Part shown: one piece after another, positions 3,562 through 32,710 of the stretch
Position numbering within the stretch: position 1 is the stretch's first letter
How the letters are laid out: every line of letters starts with the position of its first letter
NCBI GenBank assembly: GCA_013334825.1
Contig: JAAXWR010000001.1
Span: 75,769 to 139,768 of the forward strand
Direction of reading: 5' to 3'
DNA length: 64,000 bases
Origin: Candidatus Yonathbacteria bacterium
GTDB taxonomy: Bacteria; Patescibacteriota; Minisyncoccia; Phycocordibacterales; JACNGX01
Program-made: the position numbers and the translations under genes
Notes under the pieces: generated by a model
Told to the model about the DNA's origin: nothing
Seen by the model: the letters and a program-made list of their open reading frames with translations, nothing else
The model's database searches: none

Positions 3562-3635
3562 GCGCGTTTAGCTCAGGTGGTTAGAGCGCAGTCCTGATAA
3601 GACTGAGGTCCCAGGTTCGAGTCCTGGAACGCGCA
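3562..3635 (+). tRNA. tRNA-Ile (anticodon GAU)
   Basis: Acceptor GCGCGTT/AACGCGC, D-arm TAGCTCAGGTGGTTAGAGC, anticodon loop CTGATAA, T-arm CCAGGTTCGAGTCCTGG. No encoded CCA. Flanked by a perfect 17-bp inverted repeat (3529-3545 / 3648-3664). Confidence 0.9.
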
Positions 3636-3689
3636 CACGGAACAGTATTGTACTCATTTGTATGACATCCTCGTTTGTGCATATAAGAC

Positions 3690-21983: not shown

Positions 21984-22018
21984 CCATATAATGACGGCAC
22001 TCAAACGTTAAAAATACG

Positions 22019-22092
22019 TGGGCGCACAGGGACTTGAACCCCGAACCGCCGAGGTATAAGCTCGGTGCTCTAACCAATTGAGCTATGCGCCC
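22019..22092 (-). tRNA. tRNA-Ile (anticodon UAU; decodes AUA)
   Basis: RC: GGGCGCA-TA-GCTCAATTGGTTAGAGC-A-CCGAG-CTTATAC-CTCGG-CGGTT-CGGGGTTCAAGTCCCTG-TGCGCCC-A; 5-bp anticodon stem, U33, anticodon T-A-T. Confidence 0.75.
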
Positions 22093-25015: not shown

Positions 25016-25250
25016 GGACAAAAAAATCGTATCCGCGTTTTGCGGTGGGTTTACCCTCCGTTCACATTTCGCAGTCATTTCACATTGTCCGTTCGCATTC
25101 GCTCACAGAGCCTCTCCCGTGTTTGCTTCGTATTCGCTCTATGGCTTCGTTGAAGTCCGTGGTAATTCTAGAAAAGCGGATTGTGTTGAGGCATAAATAA
25201 GTTTATATATGCTTGCCCCACCCAACCAGTGCGCGCACAAGCAGTGCCCC

Positions 25251-27452
25251 CTAAACTTTCTCAAGTAGTGTGAGAAAGTCCTTCAATTTTTGTATTTTTT
25301 CTGGTTCACGCAATTTAATGGTCTCGTGTTGATCGTGCATATGCTCGTGCCAGTTGTTACTTAGAATCTCATCTTTGACTGCACATTTTCCATCGATTTT
25401 TTCTAGATACGCAGATATGCTCCCGTCTGCAAGCGTGCTTTTATCAAGCATGAAGTAATACTTATGTCTCAAGATTCTCTCTAGACATTTTCGGACTTTT
25501 CCTATGGCTTCGTCTACATTACGAGAGTTATCTGCCGCATCTTTAATATATTTGATATCTTTGAAATACTGCTCTTCAATCAACTCATCCACGTCACATT
25601 CTTCAAGTACTGAACCAAATGTTTTAGAATGTTTAATTCTTAGTATTTTCGTATCTGAAGAAGGCAACTTTTCTTGCAGTCTTCCCAAAAAACTATCATC
25701 ATGAGTTAGGATAATTACCTGTTCTGGTAAATCATCACTCTCATTTCTAATATCAATTATTGCTTTTGCTAGATAGTCTTTTCTGTTTGAATCAAAACTT
25801 GAAAAAGGATCATCTAGAATGACTATTTTACTTTTCAAATTTGAATCCGTTTTAAGACTTGAAATGAAAAAAGCCATTGCTAAGAGTCTTCGATCACTGT
25901 CACTGAGTGTGTTTCCAAAATACGCTTTATCCAAAGGCTCTTCATCTGACTGAGAACGTTTATTGGAAATTGGTACTGTTTCCCCATCGATAACAAACTC
26001 ATAATCAAGAAAGTGTGCATCAGATCGTGTGAGATTTGATTTGCTATTTAACTTTTGTATTGTAAAATCTGCCTTTAAAACATCCCTCAAGACCATGTTG
26101 ATTTGTTCCTGATTCTTTTCAATTGTACTTTTCGTTATCTTGTCTATCTTTTTCCGTAATGCATCAATTTTTACTTTCTTCATTTCAACAGCTTTTCCAG
26201 CTTGCTGGTATTTTTCTGCGAGAGTTACACCTTCTTTACTATGGCGGTATTGCGACAATTGAAACTGTTTCAATTCATTTTCAAGACCTTGTAATTTGAG
26301 AGCAGAAAACTCTTGTGTTTTTAATTCATTTAAAATTGAATGTAATTTTTTGATTTCTGAAACAAATACTTGAAAATGACTGTCTTCCGCTTCACAATTG
26401 ATAGGATGATTCAGATTTTTTAGTTTTTTTGCAACATCTTCATCAAGAGCTTTTTTGTTTTCCAACAATAGTTTTTTATCTAAAATATCTTCACACTTAA
26501 CCCCGAGAGAAGTGAATTTCGCTATTTCTGCTTCTGGATCAAAGCGCAAGAATCTCTCTCCGTATGTTTCTATTTCTTGTCGTGTTGTTGTGTAAGTTTC
26601 CCCGAAGACTTTTTTGAAATCCTTAATCAGATCGGTGACTGGTGCAAGATTTTGTCCGCAGAATATACATGCATCTGAATCTTTTTTCAACAAGGTGACA
26701 CCGTCTGCCAGAAAATTCTTTGACGCATGTTCATCATTCCAGTGATTGCGAATATGTTCATCAATATTCTTTTCAGCGGATGTGTCCAGGGTTTTCTGCA
26801 TTGCAGCAAAAAAATTATCAAACGTACTTGCAAGAGGTGATGTTGGTACTAACTGCTTGAGTGCATCACTATTTTTTAGTCTTTGAATTTTTTCTTTTTT
26901 CTTTTCAACCTCCTCATCAATATTTGTAATCTCTATGGCTTTCAAGAAAAAATCAAATGTGCCTAGATCATATTTTGTATATTCTGTTTTTATTTGGTCA
27001 CGTTGTTTCTCTAGAGCATCTTGTTCATCACGCAATTCCTTTAACTTCGTGACTTTTTGTCCCACGTTTTCACCAACAAAGATGCCGTGTAAAGATGATT
27101 TGTGTTTATGATCTATCTCGTCACCTACAAAAACTGAATTATGTATAAAATTGTTATCAAATATAGCAATGTTTGGATTATTCCAATTTCCATTTGCTAG
27201 AGTTAGATGCTTGTTGCTACTATCTAAAATATCAATCACGATGTCGCCAGTGTGCCCAAAACTTTTCTTTCCTTTTATACATTTCTGATCAGAATTTTTG
27301 AGAGATCTAAAAATGGTGGTTAGGGTACTTTTACCATAGGTGTTGTAACCAAAAATGATTGTATGTTTAAGAAACCTTAAATCGTCATTGCCACCATTGG
27401 CAAAGTTTTTGAATTTTCCCAACCCCTCAATTTTTAATATCTTACTAATCAT
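25251..27452 (-). CDS. SMC-like ABC ATPase (733 aa) with a coiled-coil insert carrying CxxC (CIFCGQ, res ~262) and a ~150-aa C-terminal extra domain; candidate RloC/PrrC-like anticodon nuclease
   Basis: Walker A GYNTYGKST, signature-like LSDSDRRLLAMAF, Walker B/D-loop IVILDDPFSSFD, H-loop ILTHDD; C-terminus VRKCLERILRH; last gene of the R-M operon. Confidence 0.45.
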   Translation of the reverse strand: MISKILKIEGLGKFKNFANGGNDDLRFLKHTIIFGYNTYGKSTLTTIFRSLKNSDQKCIKGKKSFGHTGDIVIDILDSSNKHLTLANGNWNNPNIAIFDNNFIHNSVFVGDEIDHKHKSSLHGIFVGENVGQKVTKLKELRDEQDALEKQRDQIKTEYTKYDLGTFDFFLKAIEITNIDEEVEKKKEKIQRLKNSDALKQLVPTSPLASTFDNFFAAMQKTLDTSAEKNIDEHIRNHWNDEHASKNFLADGVTLLKKDSDACIFCGQNLAPVTDLIKDFKKVFGETYTTTRQEIETYGERFLRFDPEAEIAKFTSLGVKCEDILDKKLLLENKKALDEDVAKKLKNLNHPINCEAEDSHFQVFVSEIKKLHSILNELKTQEFSALKLQGLENELKQFQLSQYRHSKEGVTLAEKYQQAGKAVEMKKVKIDALRKKIDKITKSTIEKNQEQINMVLRDVLKADFTIQKLNSKSNLTRSDAHFLDYEFVIDGETVPISNKRSQSDEEPLDKAYFGNTLSDSDRRLLAMAFFISSLKTDSNLKSKIVILDDPFSSFDSNRKDYLAKAIIDIRNESDDLPEQVIILTHDDSFLGRLQEKLPSSDTKILRIKHSKTFGSVLEECDVDELIEEQYFKDIKYIKDAADNSRNVDEAIGKVRKCLERILRHKYYFMLDKSTLADGSISAYLEKIDGKCAVKDEILSNNWHEHMHDQHETIKLREPEKIQKLKDFLTLLEKV

Positions 27453-27458
27453 ACAAAT

Positions 27459-28229
27459 TTATTTCTTCATTCTTTGCTTGGCGATTCTTGCATATTCTTT
27501 ATCTTGCTCAATTCCAATCCATTTTCGACCATATTTTTTTGCTACATATGTCGTTGTGCCACTTCCCAAAAATGGATCAAGAACAATATCGCCTTTGTTG
27601 GAGCTTGCTAAAATAATACGCGTGAGCATTTCCTCAGGCTTTTGCGTAGGATGCAATGCGCGACCATTATCGCCACGCAAGCGCTCTTTTCCTTGGACAA
27701 GCGGAAGTTCCCAGAAATCACGCATTTGTTTTAGGTTTCCGTCCTTTTGCTTATTAGGATTTATTTTCTTTATTTCTTCGTAGTTGAATGTCCATCCACT
27801 TCCTTTTACAGCCCAAATAACAAACTCAGTTGAGTGTGTGAAGACACGCCTTGTCATATTCGGCATGGCGTTTGTCTTGTACCAAGTGATGACGTTATTT
27901 ACTTTGTAATCAAGTTGTTTTAATACAATCATCACCTCCGCGATGTTGTGATAACTACAGGCGACATAAATTGATCCTTTATCTTTCAAAGCTCTATCGC
28001 AAGCACCCAGCCATTTTCTCGTAAATTGTAAATATTCCGGTGCAGACATTTTGTCCCATTCTTCGTCGACCATGTACCAATCTCCGCCAGTCTTGTTGCC
28101 TTTCCAGTGCAAACCGTTTCCAGATAGATTATAAGGAGGATCAGCAAAAACCAAATCAATAGATTTTTCCTCAACCTTTTTATTGAGAGTGTCTATACAG
28201 TCTCCATTGTAAATAATATTTGTTTTCAT
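27459..28229 (-). CDS. beta-class DNA methyltransferase (N6-adenine or N4-cytosine, DPPY motif)
   Basis: DLVFADPPYNL (motif IV) N-terminal, VLDPFLGSGTT (motif I) C-terminal. Confidence 0.85.
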   Translation of the reverse strand: MKTNIIYNGDCIDTLNKKVEEKSIDLVFADPPYNLSGNGLHWKGNKTGGDWYMVDEEWDKMSAPEYLQFTRKWLGACDRALKDKGSIYVACSYHNIAEVMIVLKQLDYKVNNVITWYKTNAMPNMTRRVFTHSTEFVIWAVKGSGWTFNYEEIKKINPNKQKDGNLKQMRDFWELPLVQGKERLRGDNGRALHPTQKPEEMLTRIILASSNKGDIVLDPFLGSGTTTYVAKKYGRKWIGIEQDKEYARIAKQRMKK

Positions 28230-28232
28230 GTT

Positions 28233-30056
28233 TTATGTTTGAGAAATAAGGCTTTCTTGCCATACTGAAATGGTATTTGGAATATTTCGTAACCATTCAT
28301 TTGAATCGCTAAATAATTTTGATGACTCCAAGATTTCATCATACAGGCGAGCAATTTCTGAGTGTTGCAAAAATCTCTTTTTTGATTTCATTTGCACCAA
28401 CACTTTCAACACAGAAACAAATTGTCTAATCGAAAGAGGTATGATTCTTTGTGGTTGTCCCTCGTACTCGTATTTTATTGCTGTCCAGAAAGTGTTTACT
28501 GTATCTCTGTGCAACTTCGGGGCAATAAACAGACAATAGGAAGGCTTGTTATTATGTTTTTGTTCGAAGTCTCGTAAATGTCGCATAACTGGTTGACCTT
28601 CGTTGTACCATTGATCGCGACCATTCAGCATCGTGACTTCACAAATGGCATTAAAACTATCGTAAAAACACTCTATGTCTGGTGTGTTTGCGGGGGCAGT
28701 AAATGTTGGTTCATTGTCGTCACCGACAGGATAGTTTGGTTGAATTTTCAATGCATCATTTAAAGCGTGCAATCCAAGTGCAGATAATTTTTCAAGTAAG
28801 ATCGGACGATCATCAAAATCAAAAATGTTTTCAAGATCATTTATGTAAGATTCGACCTGTTCAATCGCTTGAGATTTACTGTGACTTTCTGCGTTTTGTA
28901 GTTCTCGTCTATATACTCTCAATTCTGTAATATATTTTCTTAGTTCATCAACCTGCATTTCCTGGTGACTCTTAATTTCAAGATTATCTTCCTGCAAAGT
29001 AGATTCGTATTCACGTATTTCCTCAATAAGTCTTTCGGCAATCTCATTATATTTTTCTGCAGTTTCCCAAGGTAGTTTCGGTTCCGAAATATCGGAAATG
29101 TAAGCAAGATAATCTTCTTTTGATTCGAAATGTTTTGCTTGTGCGTTATCATATGCAAGCAGAGAATCAATTTCGATTTTTCTCCTTTCCTCAAGATCAA
29201 CATAGAAACCACCGCCACGAATATGAATGTATCGAGTTAAGCGGAAATAACGGATTGCATTATCTCCATAATCTTGCAAATTGCTTAATAAGCCACCTAT
29301 TTCTTGTTCATCATCGGTTTCTAGAAAATCACTTGCAAACCGCCGTTTGTAAGCATCAAATATTTCTTTTTGCTCCTGCTTTGTTTTGCCACTTAATTCA
29401 TCTCGCAAGGTGATGATTTTTTCTGCATACATGCTGATACTTTGATAATGTATCAAAGTAGGAGCAAAGAGAGACAATTCTTTTTTACTAATGCCTTTTG
29501 CATTGTTGCCACGCGCAGTCTCTTTTTGGTTAACTTCGTTGATTAAATGGAGTGTTCCTATAAACGGTTTGATATCGTAGTCTCCGTTATCTTGATAATC
29601 TCGACTGTCTGGATTTGGTATTTGCCACTTTAAGAAGCTTCTAAAAAATATTTCTCCAAAATCAAAATCATCTTTTAGAAATAATTTTCCTAATTCTGTT
29701 ATTTTTACCTTGTTATCTTCGATGGCGACAAGCCCTATTTTTTTGAGAGGGTTCATTGACTGCCTCCCACGCATTGCAGGATCTTCATAATTTTTCGCAT
29801 TAAAAATTTCTTCCGCCTGCTCAAGAGAGATGTCTCTTGATGGATCATCAACCAAATCAACATGATCTTGCATAAGTCCATTGTAGAATTGGCGACTTCC
29901 ATAACCGTATATTCTGTTCTGGATCAGCAAAATTTGATATTTCTTTTGGTTCTCAAGATTCCACTCAAAATTTTCAAGCTGTTGCAAAACAATCAAGAAA
30001 TTTCTCAATCTCTCAGGATTTCGTAATGTTGTTGTGATTGACCAGGGTTTTTTCAT
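28233..30056 (-). CDS. putative restriction endonuclease (607 aa; size and two-MTase context suggest a Type IIS, AlwI-family-like enzyme)
   Basis: AT-rich ORF sandwiched between two MTase genes with 2-3 nt spacers; possible PD...ExK-like PDIE...CEVT near the C-terminus; family assignment is inference only. Confidence 0.4.
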   Translation of the reverse strand: MKKPWSITTTLRNPERLRNFLIVLQQLENFEWNLENQKKYQILLIQNRIYGYGSRQFYNGLMQDHVDLVDDPSRDISLEQAEEIFNAKNYEDPAMRGRQSMNPLKKIGLVAIEDNKVKITELGKLFLKDDFDFGEIFFRSFLKWQIPNPDSRDYQDNGDYDIKPFIGTLHLINEVNQKETARGNNAKGISKKELSLFAPTLIHYQSISMYAEKIITLRDELSGKTKQEQKEIFDAYKRRFASDFLETDDEQEIGGLLSNLQDYGDNAIRYFRLTRYIHIRGGGFYVDLEERRKIEIDSLLAYDNAQAKHFESKEDYLAYISDISEPKLPWETAEKYNEIAERLIEEIREYESTLQEDNLEIKSHQEMQVDELRKYITELRVYRRELQNAESHSKSQAIEQVESYINDLENIFDFDDRPILLEKLSALGLHALNDALKIQPNYPVGDDNEPTFTAPANTPDIECFYDSFNAICEVTMLNGRDQWYNEGQPVMRHLRDFEQKHNNKPSYCLFIAPKLHRDTVNTFWTAIKYEYEGQPQRIIPLSIRQFVSVLKVLVQMKSKKRFLQHSEIARLYDEILESSKLFSDSNEWLRNIPNTISVWQESLISQT

Positions 30057-30058
30057 AA

Positions 30059-31867
30059 TTATTTTGTTACTTTACAGTAGAAAATGCGTTCCGCATTATC
30101 TTCTCCGTTACTTTTTCCTGTCGTAAAGGCTTTGTAATCTTTTTCAAAAATCTCAACATCACCCTTGTCGTTTAGAATTTGTAGAATTTCATCATCACTC
30201 ATACGCGCATTAGAACGCCCATCTTTGGAATCTCCAGTATTATTGTATGAAAGTAAAATATGCTCGCAGTTTGCATTTCTGATAAGGTCTGCAAAAGCAC
30301 TCGTTGCACTTTTTAGGCAATAGTCACTTTTAATGTGAGAGCGATCCATTTTTTTACCAATCCCAATAACCTCTGGCTTTTTCCATTCCGCAAGATTTTC
30401 TAAAAGATGGTAGGCATCCGAGTATTGACGTGAATTATATGGTGGATCTACGTATAAAACATCACAAGAAATTTTTCTGATAAGGGTATTTGCGTCTTCT
30501 CTATAAATTTCATTATTTGTGTTGCGAATGTAATCAACATCAGGAATCAAAAGCTTTATGGGCTGCAACATGTCTAGCTTTTTACGAAAAGCGTCATAAT
30601 GACCAACGGTATTGGCAACTTTATCGACAGCATAAAGCAAGGAACAAATCAAAATATTTTTTTCTTCCTCATTTTCTGCTATCTTTTCAATTTCTGCACG
30701 CATTGCCCCAATCTTTCTTGCGTTTTCTTTTGTAAAATACGTCCCGCCAAAATGTTCAGAAAAATAGTTTTCCTTGTCGTTCGATAAATTATTAAGAACC
30801 TCTATCTTTTCAGAGATGCCTTGTCGCATGTCCCGATTGACTCCCAAAAACGCATATAGGCAAGCATAATTTGCTGAGAGAAAATCATTGGAAATGATTT
30901 TGATTTCTGGACTATTGAACCTTTCTCCAACGACACCTGTGCCTGCAAAAATATCGCAAAGTGAATTGATTGATCCACATTTTTCAGAAATTATGTCTTC
31001 GATAAATCCAAGCAATTTGTGTTTATTTCCCAAATATCTTCTGTTTTGAAGTTGGAAATACCCGCTTTTTGATGCTTGGGGCTGGAAGTAATGTTTATCA
31101 ATTTTTTTTATACTTACTTCGTAAGTCGGTTTTTCAATTTCTAATAGACCAAACAGCGTTTCTTGCATCCCGTCAGCGACATAATCAAAACCTTTATTTT
31201 GATCCTTTAGTTTTTCGTAAAAACTGTAATATCCTTTTTGAGAGACAATGACAAAATCAATGACAGAAATTCCCATTATTTCTCCTGCTTGTGCTATTTT
31301 TTCAACAATTTGAATATCTTTCTCGCTCGGCGTTGAATCACCAGACGGATGATTGTGTATAAGAATCACGCTTGCGGCGTTAAGTTCTGTTGCAGGATAG
31401 AAAATCTCTCTCGGGTGCAGTAGTGTCTTATCAAGAAGTCCAACACTGATAACTTCTTTTTTTAATAAAATATTTCTTGCATTCAGATACAGACAAACGA
31501 GATGTTCTTTTTTCTTATCTCTCAAATCGTAAGTTAAAGAGATAACATCTTGAGAATTACTGATTTTTATTTCGTTTGTCCGATCATCTGCATAAAATCT
31601 TTTTACTAAAGAAATTGCTGACGCAATTTGCAACGCTTTTGCTTGTCCGATTCCAGAGATTTCTTGCAAATTATCAACGGTAATATTCAAAAAGTTTTTG
31701 CCAAATTTCCTAATTATTTCTTGAGACAATTCTTGAACATTCGTGCCTTTGATACCGCTACCGAGCAAAATAGCCAAAAGATCACTTTTTGAAAGTGCTT
31801 CAGGACCTTTCTTGAGAAATCTTTCTCGCGGTCTATCAATTTTTGGAATATCTTTGATCTTTGTCAT
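30059..31867 (-). CDS. fusion protein: N-terminal RadC-like JAB/MPN domain + C-terminal Dam-family (alpha-class, D12) N6-adenine DNA methyltransferase
   Basis: RadC: HLVCLYLNARN...ILIHNHPSGDSTPSEKDIQI; MTase: RRYLGNKHKLL (motif I region), DVLYVDPPYNS (motif IV). Confidence 0.8.
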   Translation of the reverse strand: MTKIKDIPKIDRPRERFLKKGPEALSKSDLLAILLGSGIKGTNVQELSQEIIRKFGKNFLNITVDNLQEISGIGQAKALQIASAISLVKRFYADDRTNEIKISNSQDVISLTYDLRDKKKEHLVCLYLNARNILLKKEVISVGLLDKTLLHPREIFYPATELNAASVILIHNHPSGDSTPSEKDIQIVEKIAQAGEIMGISVIDFVIVSQKGYYSFYEKLKDQNKGFDYVADGMQETLFGLLEIEKPTYEVSIKKIDKHYFQPQASKSGYFQLQNRRYLGNKHKLLGFIEDIISEKCGSINSLCDIFAGTGVVGERFNSPEIKIISNDFLSANYACLYAFLGVNRDMRQGISEKIEVLNNLSNDKENYFSEHFGGTYFTKENARKIGAMRAEIEKIAENEEEKNILICSLLYAVDKVANTVGHYDAFRKKLDMLQPIKLLIPDVDYIRNTNNEIYREDANTLIRKISCDVLYVDPPYNSRQYSDAYHLLENLAEWKKPEVIGIGKKMDRSHIKSDYCLKSATSAFADLIRNANCEHILLSYNNTGDSKDGRSNARMSDDEILQILNDKGDVEIFEKDYKAFTTGKSNGEDNAERIFYCKVTK

Positions 31868-31869
31868 AA

Positions 31870-32079
31870 TTATTTCAAAAGGGTATCGATACTCACGCTA
31901 AGCACCTTGGCGACCTTTTCCATTGTCCTAATTGTAAGATTTTGTTTGCCGTTCTCGACATTGCTAATATATGCTCGGTCTAATCCCAAATCTCGGCAAA
32001 TGTCGCCTTGCGACATGCCTTTTTCGAGCCGAATCTTTTTCATGTTTTCGCCAAATTTTTGTGCTGTGGTTTTTGCCAT
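31870..32079 (-). CDS. XRE-family helix-turn-helix transcriptional regulator (candidate R-M controller protein)
   Basis: MAKTTAQKFGENMKKIRLEKGMSQGDICRDLGLDRAYISNVENGKQNLTIRTMEKVAKVL; first gene of the operon. Confidence 0.75.
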   Translation of the reverse strand: MAKTTAQKFGENMKKIRLEKGMSQGDICRDLGLDRAYISNVENGKQNLTIRTMEKVAKVLSVSIDTLLK

Positions 32080-32239
32080 AATGTATGAAAACTTATCAAC
32101 ATTGGTATTATAGCATTCTATTGTGTTTTGGCTCAATGTTAAGCTATAATACAAGTGCGCAAAACAGTATTTTTATGAAGCGTCGGAACCAAAACCAAAA
32201 TTTTCCTTTCCATTTTTTGTCGGCTCCGCTCCTACGCAC

Positions 32240-32620
32240 CGCCGAAAAAGGGGAGGGAGGGAGGGATTCTCTCCTTACAGGAGCAGTACAGGTTTTCCAT
32301 TTTTTTGGAGCAAAGCACCTCAAACATATGGGAGAACCTTTTTCCGCGACATCCCCGCTCTTTGCTCCGCAAAGGACGGGGTGCGCGGACCCGCCCAGCT
32401 CTTTCAAAAAGGGCTGGGCGGGCGAATCATTTCTGGGAGGGATTCGGTCACCAGTTCTAAGCATATTGCTCCAAGTATTCGCAATCCGCTAAGAACTCGC
32501 GACCCCGTCGCCGCGCTCCGACAAGATAAATCTTGTCGGGCTTCGCGCGCGGCTTTTTCGAATCCCTCCCTCTCTCGCAACATATAAATCGCCGGGCGAA
32601 TTCTCGCCCGGCTCATTATG
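32240..32620. repeat. GC-rich non-coding stretch with multiple partial copies of the tRNA-Ser T-arm/acceptor motif (GGAGGGATTC / GAATCCCTCC) and a long inverted repeat abutting the tRNA 3' end
   Basis: Copies at ~32246, ~32436, 32560-32583 (inverted) and in the tRNA itself; no coherent ORF; overlapping ORFs on both strands are spurious. Confidence 0.6.
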
Positions 32621-32623
32621 TTG

Positions 32624-32710
32624 CGGAGAGGGAGGGATTCGAACCCTCGAGACGATTGCTCGCCTAACACCTTAGCAGGGTGCCCCGTTCGACCGCTCCG
32701 GCACCTCTCC
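32624..32710 (-). tRNA. tRNA-Ser (anticodon GCU), long variable arm
   Basis: RC: GGAGAGG-TG-CCGGAGCGGTCGAACGG-GGCACC-CTGCTAA-GGTGT-[long variable arm]-GAGGGTTCGAATCCCTC-CCTCTCC-G. Confidence 0.88.

Follow-up and report, generated by a model that had tools for sequence, protein, structure and literature searches.

An RloC-like protein with a predicted anticodon-nuclease domain at the end of a restriction–modification operon in a Candidatus Yonathbacteria bacterium

Few single-gene defence systems are predicted as often as RloC-like proteins, yet what triggers them and how they relate to restriction have been little explored experimentally. The motif described for RloC by Davidov and Kaufmann is Arg-X3-Glu-X36-52-His, and in the Geobacillus kaustophilus protein (GkaRloC) it is represented by R692, E696 and H737, each of which is required for anticodon-nuclease activity (PMC2610378). 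The CxxC residue C291 regulates the GkaRloC nuclease, and mutations in the zinc hook deregulate it (PMC2610378; PMC3458546). The hook and a DNA-dependent ATPase act together as an internal switch, which hook mutations bypass, and the nuclease is turned on by DNA, especially DNA termini, and ATP hydrolysis (PMC3458546). In A. baylyi, inducers of double-strand breaks activate RloC against tRNA-Glu and tRNA-Gln (PMC3874168). Linkage of rloC to restriction–modification (R-M) systems was reported to be rare, at 8 of 72 (PMC2610378). PrrC and RloC have been described as atypical HEPN domains, and proteins joining an ATP-binding cassette (ABC) ATPase to such a domain as 'often found in R-M operon', with a proposed part in multi-pronged defence (Anantharaman et al. 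2013). Defence-system catalogues routinely list both RloC and PDC-S06. Here we describe an RloC-like gene in a stretch of 64,000 nucleotides (nt) of contig JAAXWR010000001.1 from a Candidatus Yonathbacteria bacterium, hereafter the window. A reading of the letters alone (the sequence-only reading) had proposed this gene to encode an RloC/PrrC-like anticodon nuclease.

The gene, which encodes a protein of 733 amino acids (aa), genuinely belongs to the RloC-like family, a known family that combines a Rad50-like ATPase with a predicted tRNA-cutting domain. This assignment of family and architecture is much more certain than the overall account, in which the protein would regulate itself and serve as an RloC-type anticodon nuclease in backup of restriction, and which we hold with moderate confidence. 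Bacteria of the Candidate Phyla Radiation are reported to be largely without clustered regularly interspaced short palindromic repeats (CRISPR) and to rely on R-M, and the window places an intact RloC-type protein in one of these ultra-small organisms. The protein is already deposited and labelled RloC-like by IMG, and R-M-linked ABC-HEPN proteins have been known since 2013; in itself it appears to be an ordinary backup antiviral gene, with close relatives attached, as judged from their neighbourhoods, to every type of restriction system. The point of wider interest is that the linkage of its clade to R-M systems of any type is near-obligate, contrary to the published description of rloC as rarely linked.

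Family membership was consistent across searches. The protein matched Pfam AAA_13 (PF13166) with E=4e-24 over aa 137-727 (model positions 130-708 of 713), scoring 85.7 bits, above the curated gathering cut-off of 36. Six PADLOC models of PDC-S06 were also matched, PDLC04895 best (E=1.6e-59); in a scan of the whole protein this best model was covered over the N-terminal 454 aa only, and the C-terminal half scanned alone gave a PDC-S06 match over aa 515-707. An NCBIfam scan of the 733-aa protein gave no real match. The identical protein is present in IMG and in NCBI, in the latter as NTV22018.1, 'AAA family ATPase [Candidatus Yonathbacteria bacterium]', and a member of its >90%-identical cluster, along with several other homologues, carries the IMG label 'wobble nucleotide-excising tRNase', the COG name for RloC; cluster look-ups returned no other informative name. 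An exhaustive profile search, run against 1.84 billion cluster representatives, recovered 12,362 relatives with E<=1e-3, of which 2,816 also have E<=1e-30, and the best 150 relatives listed are nearly all 710-790 aa long and matched over their full length. The family is thus large and uniform, and no oddity. A word-indexed profile search added six distant proteins and no more. Plasmid tblastn matches lay at 23-26% identity and were annotated only as 'AAA family ATPase', and a search of viral contigs returned two distant relatives only; the family is not typically phage-borne in the viral contig collection searched. Clustering with SbcC/RecN-type repair proteins, which had been named as the outcome that would speak against an RloC-like assignment, was not what we found, given the AAA_13 and PDC-S06 matches and the tRNase name.

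The N-terminus of the protein aligns with the N-termini of all homologues, and the gene model is thus sound. Every motif string quoted in the sequence-only reading is present: Walker A, CIFCGQ, LSDSDRR, ILDDPFSSFD, THDD and the two C-terminal strings VRKCLERILRH (aa 653-663) and WHEHMHDQH (aa 701-709). We counted conservation in 53 homologues, where the motifs are invariant or nearly so, and then in 144 diverse family representatives. In the latter set, G40, K41, D547, D548 and H584 of the ATPase and both cysteines of the candidate zinc hook (C262 and C265) are kept in 144/144, with S517 in 143, D554 in 142 and D520 in 141. The candidate catalytic residues of the C-terminal domain are kept to a similar degree (R654 in 144/144, E658 in 143/144 and H706 in 129/144, alignment gaps accounting for 12 of the remainder). 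Since they are invariant or near-invariant in both sets, the quoted motifs are not chance matches. The spacing R654-x3-E658-x47-H706 falls within the X36-52 range of the published RloC rule (PMC2610378). The Arg-x3-Glu...His arrangement, earlier likened only loosely to the PrrC triad, proved to be a conserved feature of the family and the C-terminal domain does carry the residues expected of an anticodon nuclease. The distant relatives P0056 and P0059 each match the family profile as well as the PADLOC PrrC model, the latter into its C-domain, through positions 340-343 of 372, and in an alignment of the C-terminal domains their 'SH' shares a column with H706. Position 44, directly after GKST, is Leu in the window protein and L, F or I in 142/144 representatives. 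Judged by these alignments, all sequence features needed for a switch of the GkaRloC type are conserved here. The CxxC insert is present and the Arg that ends the PrrC-type Walker A is absent, and the half of the earlier proposal that stands is therefore the RloC half: the protein is RloC-like, not PrrC-like.

An AlphaFold2 model built from the 53-sequence alignment (mean predicted local distance difference test score (pLDDT) 86.8) shows a split ABC head, with strands at aa 2-98 and 463-618. Two long helices (115-156 and 406-458) run out of the head and back into it as a stalk of about 40-50 residues, with many shorter helices between them, and the insert as a whole is modelled with pLDDT mostly 78-94; C262 and C265 sit in a short hairpin inside this all-helical insert. 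The coiled coil of ~350 aa with a hook in the sequence-only reading thus survives as a helical insert of 344 aa with a CxxC motif found throughout the representatives, but it is not one continuous coiled coil. The C-terminal domain beyond the ATPase sheet is all helical and spans ~115 aa (aa ~620-733), shorter than the ~150 aa first estimated. In Foldseek searches of the PDB, SMC/Rad50 heads with coiled coils rank first (5xei, 1.4e-9; Rad50, 7zr1), followed by Lamassu LmuB, and the alignments to SMC/Rad50 heads solved with a coiled coil span 640-850 columns. A sequence-profile search of the PDB likewise placed Rad50 first (E=1.1e-9), the stretch from Walker B to the D-loop matching Rad50 at 1e-9. 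The likeness to Rad50/SMC is confined to the ATPase head. When the PDB was searched with the single sequence, the only match was a BLOC-1-related subunit, which we rejected as spurious. Structure prediction thus bore out the SMC/Rad50-like head and the CxxC hairpin that had been anticipated, and left the nuclease-like fold of the C-terminal domain without a significant match.

An R-M system directly adjoins the gene, on the same strand, in 10 of 11 close orthologues (58-82% identical) with enough flanking sequence. The window has an AlwI-type IIS system. Elsewhere the partner is a type III mod-res pair with an HTH gene and a Ymh HEPN gene (P0002, 82%), an AlwI-type system with another second methylase and gene order (P0007, 79%), a mod and a res gene between which the nuclease gene is embedded (P0015, 72%), a single-chain type IIG/ISP enzyme with a 4-bp overlap (P0018, 70%), an EcoRI-like methylase with a GmrSD_N/HNH nuclease (P0020 and P0025, 68%), HsdS with a PD-(D/E)XK nuclease (P0022, 68%), a type III system (P0023, 66%) or hsdM-hsdS-hsdR (P0027, 61%). 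No R-M system is evident at P0012 (74%). We extended these observations to a wider set of 43 species-representative genomes (Patescibacteria, Bacteroidota, DPANN archaea and others), in which R-M genes are adjacent in about 20 of 38 usable loci, the AAA_13 gene often lying between hsdM/S and hsdR, like prrC. The earlier statement that RloC homologues are typically R-M linked therefore does not hold for RloC in general (8 of 72; PMC2610378) but does hold for the clade of the window protein.

One locus of the wider set, L035 from Paceibacterota, carries the same RadC-Dam / AlwI / N4-N6 operon as the window, and its endonuclease is 49% identical whereas its AAA_13 protein is only 29% identical. 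This pairing indicates that nuclease and R-M modules have recombined repeatedly, the linkage being re-established each time. Such shuffling favours a trigger common to all R-M types, for example DNA ends, over a single partner.

Several further features were seen in the neighbourhoods of relatives. A protein with a DUF2130 domain (~415-470 aa) recurs as the immediate neighbour of the AAA_13 gene, upstream or downstream, on unrelated contigs (L001:10208-11614, L011:2814-4127, L015:2884-4125 and L019:788-2032), and is a possible functional partner at some loci. Three genes upstream of a type IIG and AAA_13 gene pair, on the opposite strand, there is a gene for an RtcB RNA ligase (L001/L003:1690-2853, (-)). 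RtcB seals breaks with 2',3'-cyclic-phosphate and 5'-OH ends, the end type made by anticodon nucleases; this neighbour could be a coincidence or a host repair partner. The P0002 operon contains, between its HTH and type III mod genes, a Hypoth_Ymh gene (L057:819-1571) of another HEPN family, and would thus carry two predicted HEPN RNases. In a type I operon of Patescibacteria the AAA_13 gene is split into two open reading frames (ORFs) of 377 and 371 aa (L034:10001-12265), which probably reflects either a frameshifted pseudogene or faulty assembly.

By analogy with the Geobacillus and Acinetobacter RloC proteins, the nuclease of the window protein would probably be held off by its zinc-hook/ATPase module, with C262 and C265 as the presumed zinc ligands. 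Binding of DNA, probably DNA ends, by the head, together with ATP hydrolysis, would switch the nuclease on, and the activated enzyme would cut tRNA anticodon loops and so stop translation. As the gene is predicted to be co-transcribed as the last of an acquired type IIS-like R-M operon, we propose that it could provide a second line of defence of the abortive-infection kind, the infected cell being arrested while restriction proceeds or is being overcome. More tentatively, the Patescibacteria-centred clade as a whole might consist of restriction-coupled tRNases that are independent of R-M type, placed at the end or in the interior of any R-M operon at hand (type I, IIS, IIG, III or methylase plus HNH), sensing through the Rad50-like head a product common to all of them (DNA ends or breaks, or stalled restriction) and responding with translational arrest; we consider this broader proposal possible, though rather doubtful. 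It would give a cis-encoded answer to an old question, whether RloC works together with R-M systems and in what way. A generic trigger based on DNA, if confirmed, would account for the coupling of restriction to abortive translation shut-off in minimal genomes; otherwise the locus is one more annotated AAA_13 gene.

Several observations weigh against the account of a self-regulated RloC-type nuclease. That account, for the window protein's clade, is drawn from sequence, predicted structure and analogy, and the likeness to characterised RloC and PrrC was judged by published motif rules, by the IMG name and by the links through P0056 and P0059 to the PrrC model. The whole 733-aa protein gave no match to the PADLOC PrrC model at E<=0.01, and its C-terminal half matched that model at 7.6e-5 only over aa 539-607, from Walker B to the H-loop. 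The isolated C-terminal domain, searched against Pfam and PADLOC, returned sub-threshold noise only, as did the isolated helical insert. Fold matches of the C-terminal domain were non-significant (E>=2.2), HEPN proteins making up three of the top seven, and its profile did not match a neighbouring Ymh-type HEPN protein significantly (probability 1%). The HEPN motif R-x4-6-H is absent, since SNNWHEHM precedes H706 without an Arg 4-6 residues upstream. The predicted HEPN fold of this domain is weakly supported. H706 itself occurs in 'Met-His' where 'Ser-His' is common in RloC. The insert is predicted as segmented helices, not as a long Rad50-style coiled coil. The endonuclease of this operon resembles a nickase subunit, and such an enzyme alone would not create the double-strand ends to which RloC responds. 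Finally, there is little direct evidence of phage protection even for canonical RloC, which recent defence surveys list as untested.

The operon is tight, with 6 nt to the upstream gene and 4-bp overlaps in relatives, and many relatives lie between hsdM/S and hsdR or between mod and res, as prrC does. This arrangement would suit a guard of the PrrC kind, latent while bound to the co-encoded R-M enzyme and freed when a phage anti-restriction protein inactivates that enzyme, a mechanism established for EcoPrrC. However, orthologues that are 61-82% identical to one another are coupled to unrelated type I, IIS, IIG, III and methylase-plus-HNH enzymes, which therefore offer no common partner surface; this argues against masking by one partner and for a general trigger. 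Near-identical nucleases wired into every mechanistic type of R-M within one clade likewise disfavour partner-specific silencing and favour a generic trigger based on DNA. PrrC also lacks the CxxC helical insert, the source of the internal switch of RloC, and the window protein has neither an Arg after Walker A nor a whole-protein match to the PrrC model. We therefore consider a PrrC-style guard unlikely.

The Rad50, SMC and Lamassu LmuB heads are the closest solved relatives by both sequence and fold, and the C-terminal domain has no significant match to a nuclease family or fold. Both facts would fit an SMC/Rad50-like accessory of the R-M system that tethers or processes DNA, or one that acts as a sensor for another effector, its C-terminal domain being a non-catalytic binding module. 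Against such a role, R654, E658 and H706 are as strictly conserved as the catalytic residues of the ATPase across a very diverse family, an active-site-like pattern that matches residues proven essential in RloC (PMC2610378). Nor does a conserved partner nuclease gene follow, the downstream genes being variable or absent, and we regard a purely accessory function as quite improbable. The head, the CxxC motif and the convergent recG gene could also be read as those of a housekeeping repair ATPase of the SbcC/RecN/Rad50 type that stands beside recG by chance. This seems very improbable, since no SbcD/Mre11 partner adjoins the gene, whose neighbours are R-M genes and recG; the gene lies with the R-M genes inside a low-GC island; it is assigned to AAA_13/PDC-S06 and not to SbcC families; its C-terminal triad domain is not found in Rad50/SbcC; and its neighbourhoods elsewhere are R-M operons. 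Collectively, the conserved triad and the unrelated partners favour a self-regulated nuclease of the RloC type.

The AAA_13 gene does stand at the end of an R-M operon, as the sequence-only reading had placed it; the operon has five genes and lies on the minus strand of the window (Table 1), which that reading did not state. The distance from the stop codon of the second methylase to the AAA_13 ATG is 6 nt, and the genes upstream, identified by Pfam and PADLOC, form a type IIS-like R-M system. The closest solved structure to the 607-aa endonuclease is the N.BspD6I nickase (E=2.7e-31), and within heterodimeric R.BspD6I it is the large, nicking subunit that the protein most resembles. The operon has no small-subunit gene, and the enzyme may therefore act as a nickase by nature or as a type IIS homodimer, which bears on the DNA lesion that would be visible to the linked RloC-like protein. 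The first methylase joins a complete RadC-like JAB domain (with UPF0758_N) to a D12-class adenine methylase, and this fusion of ~602 aa also occurs in two other AlwI-type operons (L035:5571-7382 and L058:1211-3019). Promoter-like sites lie at 32142-32107, just upstream of the HTH controller gene, and an imperfect 24-nt inverted repeat at 32100-32157 (75% complementary, 10-nt spacer) overlaps both of them. This inverted repeat may be a C-box operator, and it suggests that the C protein really starts downstream of the TTG at 32154.

The operon occupies an island of ~7 kb (~25250-32200) with a guanine-plus-cytosine (GC) content of 0.35, compared with 0.49-0.50 for the recG flank and for the sequence beyond 32.2 kb. 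The AAA_13 gene itself has a GC content of 0.34, against 0.49 for recG, its convergent neighbour. A tRNA-Ser gene borders the island, and partial copies of its 3' end, two direct and one inverted, are present at 32257-32271, 32433-32447 and 32558-32572, resembling the scars of repeated integration. With its low GC, its tRNA-Ser border and the three partial tRNA copies, the region resembles a defence island gained by horizontal transfer and integrated at a tRNA gene. At the recG-side boundary, a search for another att-like copy of the 3' end of tRNA-Ser found none, and no integrase is encoded within the island. ARAGORN also detected a tRNA-Ile with anticodon TAT (UAU) at 22018-22092 (-), in addition to a tRNA-Ile(GAT) at 3562-3636. 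Genome-encoded UAU isoleucine tRNAs are uncommon in bacteria.

Table 1. Coordinates in the window of the RloC-like gene, its motifs and domains, and the genes around it
Feature	Position	Strand	Evidence or remark
RloC-like AAA_13 / PDC-S06 gene, 733 aa	25251..27452	(-)	single ORF, ATG start; NCBI NTV22018.1
Walker A / P-loop GYNTYGKST, aa 35-43	27324..27350	(-)	followed by Leu, not PrrC-type Arg
Helical insert between ATPase half-heads, aa ~115-458 (344 aa)	26079..27110	(-)	AlphaFold2 secondary structure
CIFCGQ, aa 262-267, CxxC candidate zinc hook (C262, C265)	26652..26669	(-)	short interhelix hairpin
ABC signature-like motif LSDSDRR, aa 516-522	25887..25907	(-)	
Walker B and D-loop IVILDDPFSSFD, aa 543-554 (ILDDPFSSFD = aa 545-554)	25791..25826	(-)	
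H-loop THDD, aa 583-586 (H584)	25695..25706	(-)	
All-helical C-terminal domain, aa 620-733, predicted anticodon nuclease (divergent HEPN-like)	25254..25595	(-)	AlphaFold2 models
R654-x3-E658 (RKCLE), first two residues of candidate catalytic triad	25479..25493	(-)	
H706, candidate catalytic His (His of 'MHD'), 47 residues past E658	25335..25337	(-)	
N4/N6 DNA methyltransferase, second methylase, 256 aa	27459..28229	(-)	Pfam N6_N4_Mtase 3.1e-62; PADLOC MTase_II 1.2e-84
AlwI-family type IIS / nicking endonuclease, 607 aa	28233..30056	(-)	Pfam RE_AlwI 1.3e-85; PADLOC type II nicking endonuclease 3.4e-135
RadC-like JAB domain and D12-class N6-adenine methyltransferase fusion, 602 aa	30059..31867	(-)	Pfam RadC 3.1e-38, UPF0758_N, MethyltransfD12 5.4e-34; PADLOC MTase_II 1.3e-112
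HTH controller (C) protein, maximal ORF	31870..32154	(-)	Pfam HTH_3 4.1e-15; PADLOC Control_protein 1.4e-16
tRNA-Ser(GCU), border of low-GC island	32623..32710	(-)	

Compared with described systems, the window protein is closest to RloC. It shares with RloC the split ABC head, a CxxC at the centre of a helical insert that separates Walker A from the signature, a single self-contained polypeptide, the C-terminal R-x3-E-x(36-52)-H triad (x47 here), the lack of a PrrC-type Arg after Walker A and the IMG/COG name. It is shorter than the Geobacillus kaustophilus protein YP_146738 (733 against 804 aa), and unlike RloC it has Met, not Ser, before the catalytic His. Within PDC-S06 it falls under sub-model PDLC04895, whereas relatives with 'SH' best match other sub-models, and its clade is nearly always operonic with R-M, against 8 of 72 for published RloC. 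With PrrC of the E. coli prr locus it has in common an ABC-type NTPase joined to a C-terminal Arg-Glu-His nuclease domain and an attachment to R-M as a presumed backup of restriction, and some of its relatives sit, like prrC, inside type I operons. PrrC, however, is a protein of ~400 aa without the coiled-coil/zinc-hook insert that takes up 344 aa of the window protein. It has a PrrC box and a Walker A Arg associated with specificity for GTP/dTTP (PMC3458546) where the window protein has GKST followed by Leu, and it occurs invariably in a type Ic locus, silenced by EcoprrI, whereas the window gene follows a type IIS-like system.

The single-gene families PDC-S06, a candidate defence family, and AAA_13 (~730-860 aa), both matched by the window protein, are defined by bioinformatics. 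The ABC-HEPN proteins (the PrrC/RloC/APECO1_4465 group) have the same order of an ABC ATPase and a C-terminal predicted HEPN RNase; their published examples are mainly linked to type I systems, and the HEPN fold matches of the window protein's C-terminal domain are weak. With Rad50, SbcC, SMC and Lamassu LmuB the window protein shares the head fold, the signature, Walker B and H-loop motifs, and a CxxC hook in a helical insert. It differs from them in that its insert is much shorter and segmented, in that no Mre11/SbcD or LmuA-type partner stands beside its gene, and in the extra C-terminal domain that carries the triad.

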